Shown here: positions 1 through 2,825 of the stretch, piece by piece
How the letters are laid out: each line of letters opens with the position of its first letter
Position numbering within the stretch: position 1 is the first letter of the stretch
Assembly (NCBI RefSeq): GCF_003334255.1
Contig: NZ_QOWU01000130.1
Strand: one strand, 5' to 3'
Source: Escherichia coli
GTDB taxonomy: Bacteria > Pseudomonadota > Gammaproteobacteria > Enterobacterales > Enterobacteriaceae
DNA: 2,825 nucleotides
Program-made: the position numbers and the translations under genes
Notes under the pieces: generated by a model
Databases searched by the model: none
Seen by the model: the letters and a program-made list of their open reading frames with translations, nothing else
What the model was told of the DNA's origin: nothing

Positions 1-77
1 GCTTTTCGCTCACCAGAAACACGCATGTCATGTTTAGCGCGGTGTGATTCTGCTGTCCAGTAGTCGGAGGGGGGGGA
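1..77. repeat. Terminal overlap copy 1 (identical to 2749-2825), indicating a circular molecule of ~2,748 bp
   Basis: Base-by-base comparison: 1-77 (gcttttcgctcaccagaaacacgc...gtcggaGGGGGGGGa) is identical to 2749-2825, and the window ends exactly where the copy ends. Confidence 0.9.
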
Positions 78-136
78 GCGTGTTTCTACAGGTCTTCGTG
101 GGTTGATGATAGTGGAAATGCGAAAGAAACACGCTC
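76..136. repeat. 12-bp perfect inverted repeat GAGCGTGTTTCT / AGAAACACGCTC with a 37-nt loop
   Basis: 76-87 is the exact reverse complement of 125-136. A third same-sense copy of AGAAACACGC at 15-24 can pair with 78-87 instead. The loop 88-124 contains GTTGATGATAG. Confidence 0.85.
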
Positions 137-260
137 ATCCGTTGCTTAACACAAAAGATACAAAGCAACAACATTTCCGCACATGGACAGGAAGGGGAAG
201 TGAGCGCATTTGAGGGCGGGGTGTAACAATCCCCATTTGACGCACAGTGAATTTTAACCC

Positions 261-365
261 CTCAGACGCGCTCAGACGCGTTCTAACGTGATTTTTGCAG
301 GCAGGCAAGGTTTTGTTCGTTTTTTCGCGTTTGATGCGTTCAGGGGCGTTTTAAGCGCGTTTCTG
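261..365. repeat. Direct-repeat module A (~105 bp), diverged copy of 2614-2718
   Basis: Core 267-295 matches 2622-2650 at 28/29; core 346-363 (GCGTTTTAAGCGCGTTTC) matches 2699-2716 at 18/18; the intervening sequence aligns with mismatches and a 2-bp indel. Starts with a tandem CTCAGACGCG x2 (261-280). Confidence 0.8.
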
Positions 366-409
366 TCGCATCCCGGCGCTAATACCATCCCCATGGTTAA
401 TGGGAGCTT

Positions 410-445
410 CAGAAACGCGCAGATGTCGTTTTAACGTGTCCCGGG
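410..445. repeat. Partial third copy of the repeat module (CAGAAACGCGC ... CGTTTTAACGTG ... CCCGGG)
   Basis: Shares AGAAACGCGC (411-420) and CGTTTTAACG (427-436) with modules A and B in the same order and orientation. Confidence 0.5.
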
Positions 446-456
446 CAGGTTGTCGA

Positions 457-486
457 GGGTGTCGGGGCGTAGCCCTGACCAGGTGG
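457..486. repeat. Left arm of a 30-bp perfect inverted repeat (GGGTGTCGGGGCGTAGCCCTGACCAGGTGG)
   Basis: Reverse complement of 965-994 equals 457-486 exactly (30/30); a 31st flanking pair (456 A / 995 T) also matches. Confidence 0.95.
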
Positions 487-519
487 TAATCGTATCGGCG
501 TGCGCGGTTATACGATTAC
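486..519. repeat. Hairpin-forming inverted repeat (GTAATCGTAT / ATACGATTAC, 10-bp perfect stem, 14-nt GC-rich loop)
   Basis: 486-495 is the exact reverse complement of 510-519; it directly abuts the left arm of the 30-bp inverted repeat. Confidence 0.8.
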
Positions 520-539
520 ACATCCTGTCCCGTCATCGG

Positions 540-600
540 AGTTGTTTTTGCGGTGTTCCTGCGGCAAATTGAGCGGGCATAGCAACACCTCAAAACAACT
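540..600. repeat. Imperfect inverted repeat (AGTTGTTTT / AAAACAACT, 9-bp stem, ~43-nt loop) upstream of the terminator hairpin
   Basis: 540-548 pairs with 592-600; the loop contains a TGCGG...TGCGG direct repeat. Confidence 0.6.
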
Positions 601-625
601 ATCATCAGGAAATTGACTTTGACGG

Positions 626-652
626 CCCCCTGACACAGGGGGATTTTTTTTT
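626..652 (+). terminator. Rho-independent terminator-like hairpin (CCCCCTG-aca-CAGGGGG followed by A then T9)
   Basis: 7-bp GC-rich stem 626-632/636-642, 3-nt loop, then a T9 run at 644-652 on the + strand. On the - strand the stem is not followed by a T run, so it is unidirectional. Confidence 0.6.
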
Positions 653-718
653 GCCTGTTATCTGCGGTTTTCACCGCGTCGCAGACCGCACACAATCGAA
701 ACGAAGTTGAGATTGTAT

Positions 719-743
719 AAGTGCGCACTTCGTGCACTTCGTG
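719..743. repeat. 12-bp perfect palindrome AAGTGCGCACTT (719-730) overlapping a tandem 9-mer CACTTCGTG x2 (726-743)
   Basis: Read directly; 719-730 is its own reverse complement. ACGAAGT at 701-707 is a further inverted partner of the ACTTCGT units. Confidence 0.8.
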
Positions 744-964
744 AGATTCCCCCCCCGACTGCCAGTTTGTCGATCGCGCGGAACGGCTGCGGCACGAAAA
801 CGGCAAAATGATTTGCCGTCCGGTTGCCAGATCTGCGCGCTTCCGTGGAGGGCGACACGGCGCAAAAACTGCCGATATTGCGCCAGCGTTCCGGTAACAC
901 AAACTCGCAGAAATCGGGACAGGATGTGGGAATGTCGGACCGCGCACGCGCACTCAGACATTCC

Positions 965-994
965 CCACCTGGTCAGGGCTACGCCCCGACACCC
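965..994. repeat. Right arm of the 30-bp perfect inverted repeat (CCACCTGGTCAGGGCTACGCCCCGACACCC)
   Basis: Exact reverse complement of 457-486; the arms enclose 478 bp (487-964). Confidence 0.95.
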
Positions 995-1013
995 TGCCAA
1001 CGCTTCGCGGCAC

Positions 1014-1160
1014 GTGAAAAAATTCCGCGTACTGCTCACCGTTCCCGAATTCGTCAAACAGAAAATCGTGGGGTCCCGCGCCTCCGGCGTGGGTTCCGAT
1101 TTTGTGATTGACGATGGCACGGAAAAAACACTGGAGGAGGTGGTTGGTGTCACGGAGTGA
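1014..1160 (+). CDS. Candidate small ORF (48 codons from GTG), hypothetical protein; weakly supported
   Basis: C-terminal third of six-frame ORF 732-1160. From GTG 1014 the codons are mostly common enterobacterial ones (CTG, CGC, ACC, GAA, AAA, CAG, ATC, GGC, GAT) and the peptide VKKFRVLLTVPEFVKQKIVGSRASGVGSDFVIDDGTEKTLEEVVGVTE looks protein-like, unlike the Arg-rich upstream part. No ATG start, no clear SD, no recognised family. Confidence 0.2.
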   Translation: MKKFRVLLTVPEFVKQKIVGSRASGVGSDFVIDDGTEKTLEEVVGVTE

Positions 1161-1408
1161 TGCCAACCACCTGCAAGACGGTTTTTGTTGTTCACAAAAT
1201 TGGTGGAAAAGCCTGTGGGTGTTTTGTCGGGAAAACGCTTTCGTGGTTGTTGTTTTTGCCCTCAAAAAATCGAACAAAAAACAGGCGATTTTGCTGCTGC
1301 TTTCGTGCGCGTTCCTTGTATTTATACTTAAGGGATAAATGCGATTTTTTGAATCAGCTCTATCCCTTGCCATATCTGGCCTGAGCGCGGATTTGCGTGT
1401 AAATAGGT

Positions 1409-1439
1409 TTGAGAGTATTTTGTCGGGAGTGGTTATAAA
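1409..1439 (+). promoter_or_regulatory. Weak sigma70-like promoter candidate (TTGAGA -35 at 1409-1414, TATAAA -10 at 1434-1439, 19-bp spacer) upstream of rep
   Basis: Hexamers read directly; the spacer is longer than optimal. A 7-bp-stem hairpin (1443-1449/1467-1473) would lie in the resulting rep leader. Confidence 0.15.
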
Positions 1440-1560
1440 TTAGCCCCTGCGAGTCTTCCACCACTCCAGGGGCGCGACCACCTAGAACATGAACTGATTT
1501 GACGACAATTGGTACAGGTGATACAGGAATGATAACACGCAATTTCGTCTGTCGCTCGCA

Positions 1561-1566
1561 AGGGGA
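1561..1566 (+). promoter_or_regulatory. Shine-Dalgarno-like sequence for rep (AGGGGA, 8 nt upstream of ATG)
   Basis: Purine-rich AGGGGA read directly at 1561-1566; rep ATG at 1575-1577. Confidence 0.5.
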
Positions 1567-1574
1567 CGGCAGAC

Positions 1575-2573
1575 ATGAAAAATCCTGAACTTAAGAATCT
1601 GACGGATTACTCTCCAGCAGATAAACCGTGGGATGAACACCGAAGCTTTTCCGACGATGTGGGCGGTATTTATCTGCGTGCTGCCGGATTTGAGCACTAC
1701 GGCGAACGTGTCGGGGCTTGTAGTGGTATTTTGCGGTTTGGGTGGTCAACAAACACAGAGACCGGAGAAACGCGCCTGCGGTTGCGTGATGCACGGTTCT
1801 GTCGCGTCCGGCACTGTCCGATCTGTCAGTGGAGGCGTTCCATGATGTGGCAAGCCCGTTTCTATCAGTCCCTGCCAAAGATTGTGACGGAACATCCCGG
1901 CGCGCGCTGGTTGTTTCTCACACTGACAGTGCGCAACTGTTCCATTGACGCGCTTGGTGAGACGCTGACCGCGATGAATGCGGGGTTTAAGCGGTTGAAA
2001 GAGCGTAAGGAATTTCGCCATGTGTTGGGTTGGGTTCGTACCACGGAAGTAACGCGCGGCAAGGATGGTACTGCACATCCCCATTTTCACACTCTGCTGA
2101 TGGTTCCCCCTTCGATGTTGTCCGGCCGTGAGTATGTGAAACATGCCCGTTGGGTGGAACTGTGGCGTGATTGTCTGCGGGTGGCGTATGACCCGAATGT
2201 GGATATCAGAGTGGTGAAATCACGGAAACCAAAAGACGATGAATCTTTACCTTGTGTTGTTGCGGAACAGCTGCGCGGCGCGGTGGTTGAAACTCTGAAA
2301 TATTCCACAAAGCCTGCTGATATGCTGGCTGATCCTGAATGGTTCCTCGAATTAACACGGCAGGTACACAAGCGTCGTTTTGTTGCTACGGGGGGAGCGC
2401 TTAAGAACGTTCTGCAACTGGAGCGGGAAACGAACGAGGATTTAATCATGGCGGATGACATGGCAGAGGGTACAGATGACGGTTCCCGTCTGGCGTTTTC
2501 GTGGGTGCCGGTTGTCAAAAAATACCAGCGCGATCGGGCGAAAGATAAACGTCAGCTAAGTGGCGAGGATTGA
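1575..2573 (+). CDS. rep: Rolling-circle replication initiator protein Rep (HUH endonuclease, pC194/pUB110-type Rep_1 family)
   Basis: 332-aa ORF, the only long ORF with protein-like composition. Translation shows motif I FLTLTV (nt 1914-1931), motif II HUH HPHFHTLL (nt 2076-2099) and motif III ETLKYSTKPAD with the presumed catalytic Tyr (TAT at nt 2301-2303), in the order and spacing typical of pC194/pUB110-family Rep proteins. ATG at 1575 is preceded by AGGGGA at 1561-1566 (8-nt spacer). Overlapping antisense ORFs lack these properties. Confidence 0.9.
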   Translation: MKNPELKNLTDYSPADKPWDEHRSFSDDVGGIYLRAAGFEHYGERVGACSGILRFGWSTNTETGETRLRLRDARFCRVRHCPICQWRRSMMWQARFYQSLPKIVTEHPGARWLFLTLTVRNCSIDALGETLTAMNAGFKRLKERKEFRHVLGWVRTTEVTRGKDGTAHPHFHTLLMVPPSMLSGREYVKHARWVELWRDCLRVAYDPNVDIRVVKSRKPKDDESLPCVVAEQLRGAVVETLKYSTKPADMLADPEWFLELTRQVHKRRFVATGGALKNVLQLERETNEDLIMADDMAEGTDDGSRLAFSWVPVVKKYQRDRAKDKRQLSGED

Positions 2574-2613
2574 GCGCGTTTCAGGCGCGAACTATTCATG
2601 CACTGGGAGAATA

Positions 2614-2718
2614 TTCAGAAACGCGCTCAGAAGCGTTCTAACGTGATTTTCAGAAACGAGCAAGGATTTACTCGTTTTTTGTTTTGACGCACTCAGAAGC
2701 GTTTTAAGCGCGTTTCCG
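2614..2718. repeat. Direct-repeat module B (~105 bp), diverged copy of 261-365; begins 41 bp after the rep stop codon
   Basis: See module A. The two modules are ~395 bp apart start to start across the circular junction. Confidence 0.8.
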
Positions 2719-2748
2719 GGTCTCTGCTACGGCAGTCCACGGCTGACA

Positions 2749-2825
2749 GCTTTTCGCTCACCAGAAACACGCATGTCATGTTTAGCGCGGTGTGATTCTG
2801 CTGTCCAGTAGTCGGAGGGGGGGGA
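2749..2825. repeat. Terminal overlap copy 2 (identical to 1-77)
   Basis: See the feature at 1-77. Confidence 0.9.

Follow-up and report, generated by a model that had tools for sequence, protein, structure and literature searches.

What kind of replicon is a 2.8-kb Escherichia coli contig that carries one recognisable gene, and what does the rest of its DNA do? The contig (NZ_QOWU01000130.1, assembly GCF_003334255.1) was analysed over its whole length of 2,825 nt, here called the window. With a probability of roughly 0.88, it is a complete cryptic rolling-circle plasmid of 2.75 kb belonging to the Col(MP18)/pPM18 lineage, presented with a 77-bp assembler overlap at its ends. On this reading the plasmid is a hitch-hiker resembling pBuzz, having no relaxase and carrying origins of transfer (oriT), and signals in its non-coding DNA probably let it ride on larger conjugative plasmids. 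The plasmid itself is already present in public databases, and its type, exemplified by pBuzz and pPM18, is already published; what is added here is a map of its modules.

A closed 2,748-bp circle with one gene

Circularity and coding content turn on the following features.

1..77, no strand: assembly overlap, first copy, identical to 2749-2825 and present as a single copy in closed records
2749..2825, no strand: assembly overlap, second copy, 100% identical to 1-77
1575..2573, plus strand: rep, encoding a 332-aa Rep_1 (pC194/pUB110-type) HUH rolling-circle initiator (Pfam PF01446)

The two ends of the window were matched by a repeat finder at 100% identity over 77 nt, the second copy stopping exactly at the last position. 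An exact repeat of this length in 2.8 kb is beyond chance, and the true unit spans 1-2748, or 2,748 bp. The unit was compared by megablast with the 72,556 plasmid records of PLSDB, and with the complete E. coli genomes of RefSeq. PLSDB yielded seven closed circular plasmids from E. coli, 2,738-2,744 bp long, which cover 100% of the unit at 99.2-99.8% identity; all are circular permutations of it, each holding the 77 bp once. Adding the RefSeq matches brings the number of independent closed circular E. coli records to at least ten. Because the closed twins hold the 77 bp once, the repeat is the assembly overlap of a circular molecule, and both a tandem duplication and a larger molecule are ruled out. 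Seventy-seven is a usual largest k-mer of the assembler SPAdes, a length that would fit an overlap artefact. A sequence-only reading of the window had proposed a circular molecule linearised with an overlap, with a unit of 2,748 bp, and had recommended a search of plasmid databases; the exact terminal repeat and the closed twins returned by that search, in PLSDB and further in RefSeq, bear the proposal out.

That the repeat is genuine, and the window a piece of a larger or linear molecule (for instance the junction of a tandem multimer, an integrated copy or a cointegrate), is highly improbable. Such a view could draw on remnants of relatives (the 3' end of rep, the adjacent element and an oriT) lying inside ColK-like and F/ColRNAI plasmids, and on the cointegrates reported for pBuzz-like plasmids (PMC7448864), but the closed circles of 2,738-2,744 bp contain the 77 bp once and nothing else, and the repeat is placed precisely at both window ends.

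The best twin, CP077277.1 (99.8%), differs from the window by one substitution (position 299) and by the length of three homopolymers (G8 at 69-76, T9 at 644-652, C8 at 749-756). The homopolymer lengths may be sequencing errors, in the window or in the references. The contig break falls exactly at the G run at 69-76. Terminal k-mer overlaps of this kind should be trimmed before deposition.

The Rep protein matches Pfam Rep_1 with E = 9.1e-86 over model positions 2-252 of 253. Its translation holds HPHFHTLL (HUH) and ETLKYSTK (E-x3-Y), which, if pC194 RepA is a guide, presumably supply the catalytic residues. The Rep_1 family comprises HUH rolling-circle initiators of the pC194/pUB110 kind (PMC5714925), and PF01446, HUH and E-x3-Y are features common to the window, pC194, pUB110 and pKYM. 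By tblastn, relatives of Rep at 67-74% identity reside in other small enterobacterial plasmids, and identity to the Rep_1 proteins of Staphylococcus and Bacillus is ~31-34%. The window is set apart from pC194, pUB110 and pKYM by this low identity to Gram-positive Reps, by the enterobacterial host, by the lack of the heptamer CTTGATA and by the absence of a Mob/Pre gene, mobilisation being a role that borrowed oriTs would serve. Substitutions separating rep from its relatives fall mostly on third codon positions (5/6/26 and 12/10/35), with zero indels. NCBIfam gave no match for Rep or for any other open reading frame (ORF), and Rep is recognised by Pfam alone.

HUH Rep proteins are common to single-stranded DNA phages, and Rep has a weak secondary Pfam match to REP_ORF2-G2P (E = 0.0011). 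It is nonetheless vanishingly improbable that the window represents a small phage or satellite of this kind in replicative form: the window has no capsid gene, nor any gene beyond rep, the Rep_1 match is full length, and the close relatives are all annotated as plasmids of cultured Enterobacteriaceae.

rep is the sole ORF of the window with family support. The other long ORFs were rejected as genes, since third-position bias is absent and the indels that distinguish them from pPM18 (1, 2, 4, 5, 8, 10 or 13 nt) are not multiples of three. The tblastn matches of non-rep ORFs in relatives, the five largest being considered, are frame-broken and fragmentary. ORF 516-953 on the minus strand, listed by RefSeq as 'hypothetical protein' in pPM18 (L002 120-554; L numbers denote fetched loci), fails the coding tests. 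A RefSeq 'hypothetical protein' coding sequence in pBuzz (L022 1421-1657) spans the second oriT copy. Such calls over the oriT cassettes of these two plasmids are probably spurious. ORF 288-434, inside a 165-nt element described below, is partly open in relatives, but was rejected because of 1-2-nt indels in the alignment.

Two more claims of the sequence-only reading could be upheld. The rolling-circle replicon is supported by the full-length Rep_1 match, the HUH and E-x3-Y motifs, and the origin-like block and strand-specific hairpins upstream of rep; the lack of any convincing gene in the ~1.75 kb outside rep agrees with the missing third-position bias, the frame-breaking indels and the fragmented tblastn matches. 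The reading also assigned any replication-control, lagging-strand-origin or maintenance functions of this DNA to cis-acting elements or very small products; mobilisation was missing from the functions listed, and a cassette of transfer origins is the main content.

A predicted transfer-origin cassette

Three elements of the non-coding DNA resemble known oriTs.

429..532, plus strand: oriT-L, I-complex (R64-type, MOBP) copy of subtype GTAATCGTAT...ATACGATTAC, predicted nick CATCCTG/TCCCG at 527/528
915..1022, minus strand: oriT-R, second I-complex copy, inverted, of subtype GGAATGTC...GACATTCC, predicted nick at 920/919
676..734, plus strand: MOBQ-type oriT look-alike, ACAATC...GATTGT followed by TAAGTGCG/C, predicted nick at 725/726

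The two I-complex copies were marked by the repeat finder as arms, 78-80% complementary, bracketing ~380 bp. About 84 nt of each arm match hundreds of conjugative plasmids of 80-170 kb at 92-96% identity. The matches adjoin nikA ('mobA')/nikB, the place of the oriT in I-complex plasmids, as seen in pE2855-1 (IncK2/Z), pO26-Vir (I-gamma/K1, B/O) and CP077274.1 (I-gamma/K1). oriT-L is 91-92% identical to the pO26-Vir sequence directly beside nikA-nikB, and oriT-R 96.4% identical to the pE2855-1 sequence 17 nt upstream of nikA. The aligned arms comprise an invariant outer block, a subtype-variable inverted repeat and an invariant nick region CACATCCTGTCCCG, at fixed spacing. The same parts, with the outer block reading GGTGTCGGGGC..CCCTGACCAGGTGG, make up the R64/I-complex oriT, which belongs with NikA-NikB (MOBP). 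The subtype of the left arm is found also in pO26-Vir and pKL1, that of the right arm also in pE2855-1 and pBuzz. What makes the repeat imperfect is that its arms are two different oriT alleles, each of them intact internally. Nicks at 527/528 on the plus strand and 920/919 on the minus strand are predicted by analogy with R64 and RP4, and both face the inner segment.

Arms of this complementarity around ~380 bp might also bound a miniature transposable element, or form a giant hairpin acting as lagging-strand origin. Among relatives the cassette occurs in both orientations and at varied positions, as a mobile element would. The explanation is very unlikely given the homology of ~84 nt per arm to sequence beside nikA-nikB in conjugative plasmids. 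Where the arms differ, it is in the relaxosome-repeat subtype, and each arm retains its own internal repeat; single oriT copies are found in pKL1 and L013; target-site duplication and transposase are absent; and a separate, better-conserved and strand-specific hairpin region, described below, is available for lagging-strand initiation.

Reading the arms as two oriTs, the cassette is combinatorial in twelve relatives: the repeat subtypes number four or more, an oriT may be single or paired, and the cassette as a whole occurs either way round. Inversion by recombination between the inverted oriT arms is suggested. In L012 (928-1217) and L010 (38-121), aligned to window 519-928, the whole cassette is reversed relative to rep.

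The MOBQ-type element shares 98.3% identity with the stretch 35-93 nt upstream of mobQ in pSCU-484-2, and 92.7% with the intergenic region between mobQ and mobC in pSE11-6. Of the 668 plasmid records that contain it, 653 are typed mobilisable, and it is kept also in pBuzz and other relatives. TAAGTGCGC, which follows the inverted repeat, is taken by us to be the RSF1010 nick core, TAAGTGCG/C being presumably equivalent to the RSF1010 nick. The inverted repeat followed by TAAGTGCGC is shared with the MOBQ oriT of pSE11-6 and pSCU-484-2 over 55-59 nt at 93-98% identity; there the oriT lies between mobQ and mobC, whereas in the window it is an orphan between I-complex oriTs. A tandem duplication, CACTTCGTG CACTTCGTG, is found at 727-744, directly 3' of the nick core, and MOBQ plasmids and pBuzz-type relatives have a single CACTTCGTG copy.

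Neither a relaxase nor an accessory mobilisation gene is present in the window. The plasmid would offer instead three oriT look-alikes, each predicted to be functional and usable in trans by the relaxosomes of co-resident plasmids. The NikA-repeat subtypes of the two I-complex oriTs differ, and the two may therefore answer to different helper subgroups. As the inverted arms put the predicted nicks on opposite strands, initiation at one could not terminate at the other and delete the cassette.

One further feature lies within the cassette.

626..652, plus strand: strong terminator-like hairpin, CCCCCTGACACAGGGGG followed by T9, at the end of a ~130-nt segment (533-665)

This segment, which follows the oriT-L nick, was seen among the fetched relatives in pPM18 and L006 only. 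Neither promoter nor function was found for 533-665.

Candidate replication origins and the rep leader

Two conserved structures lie between the cassette and rep.

1314..1369, plus strand: candidate double-strand (leading-strand) origin, with CCTTGTATTTATACTTAAGGGATA at 1314-1337 and the partner repeat CTCTATCCCTTG at 1358-1369
1051..1174, plus strand: candidate single-strand (lagging-strand) origin, with long hairpins at 1051-1114 and 1136-1174

CCTTGTATTTATACTTAAGGGATA is unchanged in 11 of the 12 sequences carrying the block, L008 having one substitution. The carriers include plasmids with Rep 67-74% identical, and one with otherwise unrelated flanks. By position and conservation, 1314-1337 is a candidate for the nick region of the leading-strand origin.

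The lagging-strand candidate lies ~140-260 nt upstream of the leading-strand candidate, and a lagging-strand origin usually sits just upstream of the leading-strand one. The order would match that of pC194, pUB110 and pKYM, whose leading-strand origin precedes rep on the coding strand, with the lagging-strand origin further upstream. Folded as single-stranded DNA, 1051-1174 yields z = -5.2 for the plus strand and z = -3.25 for the minus strand. The region is 88-91% identical in all eight relatives checked, compared with ~72% for rep DNA and values down to 50% for the Rep protein. In every sequence 49 of the 54 predicted pairs are retained; on the opposite strand, several invariant G-T pairs would turn into A-C mismatches. 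The region fits, as a candidate, a host-dependent lagging-strand origin on the displaced plus strand.

Replication would start by Rep nicking the plus strand within 1314-1337, and leading-strand synthesis would then proceed through rep. The displaced plus strand would be made duplex by host enzymes from the double hairpin at 1051-1174.

The leader of rep is structured as well.

1443..1473, plus strand: conserved stem-loop of the rep leader and putative terminator for a minus-strand control RNA
1436..1537, minus strand: hypothetical counter-transcript, with an extended -10-like TGTTATCAT at 1537-1529 on the minus strand
1547..1574, plus strand: hairpin enclosing the Shine-Dalgarno sequence AAGGGGA and abutting the rep ATG, the equivalent stem of relatives having been seen by eye only

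The stem-loop at 1443-1473 occurs as two sequence alleles with one structure, 6 pairs being kept via changes on both sides. TGTTATCAT is the complement of a stretch within the invariant block AATGATAACACG, which is unchanged in 8 aligned sequences. The RNA fold of the counter-transcript has z = -3.2, and the transcript, hypothetically, would terminate beyond a U-rich tail that follows the 1473-1443 hairpin. A control RNA of ~85 nt from the minus strand may reasonably be hypothesised, and nothing firmer. Copy control would, speculatively, involve the structured rep leader and possibly this small minus-strand RNA. No known RNA family was returned by Rfam, either for the window (E up to 1) or for five related loci.

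Relatives, helpers and the hairpin array

pBuzz, a plasmid of E. coli 838B, was reportedly described by Moran and Hall in 2019, in Plasmid 101:10-19. pBuzz (NZ_MF156267.1) is a Rep_1 rolling-circle plasmid built like the window: rep is the sole gene, inverted I-complex oriTs flank a MOBQ-like segment, and the candidate leading-strand-origin block and lagging-strand-origin hairpins are both the same. Window 665-1433 and pBuzz 1174-1921 are collinear at 82% DNA identity, and the Rep proteins are 73% identical. The two differ in replicon type, ColpVC in pBuzz and Col(MP18) in the window, and in their oriTs, which share one subtype in pBuzz and represent two in the window. pBuzz has neither the array of GAAACRCGC motifs described below, nor the 165-nt element, nor a 393-bp segment associated with them, nor the 130-nt terminator-bearing segment. 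Citing papers (PMC9282650, PMC11389934, PMC7448864, PMC8765060) characterise pBuzz as a rolling-circle plasmid of 1,982 bp that has two oriTs but lacks a relaxase. They report efficient mobilisation by a co-resident B/O plasmid (PMC9282650), acquisition of the p838B-R oriT (PMC11389934), and relatives that hold oriTs of other incompatibility types (PMC7448864, PMC8765060).

pPM18 (NC_013652.1, 2,330 bp), the reference-type Col(MP18) plasmid, aligns with 89% of the unit at 94% identity, its Rep 99% identical and the module order unchanged. It differs by lacking window 2717-2748 and 1-265, its content being 393 bp shorter, by holding a ~96-nt repeat once, and by having both oriTs of the GTAATCG subtype. 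A literature search on pPM18 found nothing relevant among the papers listed. Small enterobacterial plasmids of the ColE1 type, pEC156 and pCERC7-type, are likewise relaxase-less and mobilised via oriTs of conjugative plasmids (PMC4743918, PMC11389934). Unlike the window, they are theta-replicating, and have two oriTs from different families, not an inverted pair; those of pEC156, F-like and R64-like, are both functional (PMC4743918, PMC11389934).

The strain hosting the 99.8% twin also carries an 83.5-kb IncI-gamma/K1 conjugative plasmid, typed MOBP/MPF_I (CP077274.1). Several findings count against the plasmid being a rolling-circle hitch-hiker of the pBuzz kind, and two of them concern this candidate helper. 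Its oriT (L027 31600-31730) is of a third, R64-like subtype, GTAATTGTAAT...ATTACAATTAC, to which neither arm is identical; and the helper, seen as co-resident only, may not act on the small plasmid. These subtypes, the presence of two inverted copies and the absence of nikA/nikB distinguish the window from the R64/I-complex oriT. The MOBQ-like element, moreover, is short (~59 nt). The canonical pC194-family nick heptamer CTTGATA was not found in the window at up to one mismatch, and the case for the leading-strand origin is accordingly one of conservation and resemblance. A strict promoter scan gave zero sigma-70 promoters across the whole window.

Under a related possibility, which is unlikely, the oriT look-alikes would have decayed after past cointegration with conjugative or mobilisable plasmids, leaving a plasmid that in effect cannot be mobilised. 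The two arms are unlike each other, the subtype of the co-resident helper is different, and the relatives L018 and L020, typed non-mobilisable, have no oriT. Decay is, on the other hand, hard to reconcile with an intact nick region and intact halves of each internal repeat, with the 92-96% identity of the arms to the oriTs of live conjugative plasmids, and with a cassette retained in relatives whose rep DNA is merely 72% identical; and pBuzz, identical in layout, is reported as efficiently mobilised (PMC9282650). A mobilisable plasmid with borrowed oriTs remains the preferred interpretation.

The remaining non-coding DNA is occupied by an array, continuous across the ends of the unit.

2571..2748, no strand: hairpin/repeat array, part 1, with GAAACRCGC motifs in alternating orientation
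1..430, no strand: hairpin/repeat array, part 2, with motif copies to 421, including the 165-nt element at 266-430

GAAACRCGC occurs in 9 copies in the unit versus 0.15 expected, eight of them within 2571-2748 and 1-421. One further copy, GAAACGCGC, is found inside rep at 1767-1775, either by chance or as a member of the motif family. The array comprises four hairpins with 11-12-bp stems and 35-47-nt loops. No strand asymmetry was detected when the array was folded on both strands, and its folding therefore does not point to a strand-specific role. The segment 2621-2716 is a diverged duplicate (82-85%) of 266-363, ~96 nt making up the first part of the ~165-nt element, which lies directly 5' of oriT-L. 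The two ~96-nt copies bracket the 393 bp missing from pPM18.

The 165-nt element resides also in ColE1-type plasmids, and is absent from pBuzz-type plasmids. In L006 (NZ_CP075710.1), positions 1670-2698 correspond to window 2566-2748 plus 1-851 at 92-95% identity, though Rep is just 50% identical; array and oriT-L therefore move between replicons as a module. A 3' remnant of a Rep_1 gene, the 165-nt element and an I-complex oriT stand in this order in L016 (2166-2887, ColK-like) and in L017 (2425-3385, IncF/ColRNAI). The blocks of L016 and L017 look like leftovers of cointegrates formed with a member of the window's family. In Yersinia pestis pPCP1 (L015 1501-1676; NC_005816.1 2327-2493), a 165-nt GAAACGCGC element at ~73% identity lies between IS100 and rop; it has no adjacent oriT, and is matched in 51 Yersinia records.

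A cer-type site for Xer recombination was considered for the array and rejected, the XerC/XerD core GGTGCGTACAA-N8-TTATGGTAAAT being absent from the window at up to 3 mismatches; the pattern was validated on the ColK-like L016, in which the exact core was found. For the 165-nt element, a coding function, a known RNA (Rfam) and a cer site are all ruled out. Its position, at the end of the transferred plus strand (T-strand) that enters the recipient last, would suit, as a speculation, a signal priming the synthesis of the complementary strand there. It is possible, though doubtful, that array and 165-nt element form an undescribed cis-acting module, for example a host-dependent signal for T-strand priming, and that the plasmid is a specialised hitch-hiker of several helpers. 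Were this true, the priming signal would let a plasmid with neither relaxase nor primase become duplex in the recipient, and with three oriTs for different helper families the plasmid would be more than a simple relative of pBuzz.

The map adds to an already described plasmid type two I-complex oriT subtypes, an orphan MOBQ-type oriT and an unexplained hairpin array. Tiny oriT-bearing plasmids devoid of a relaxase make up a large and under-annotated share of the Enterobacteriaceae mobilome, and illustrate how replicons of one gene spread through the relaxosomes of other plasmids.

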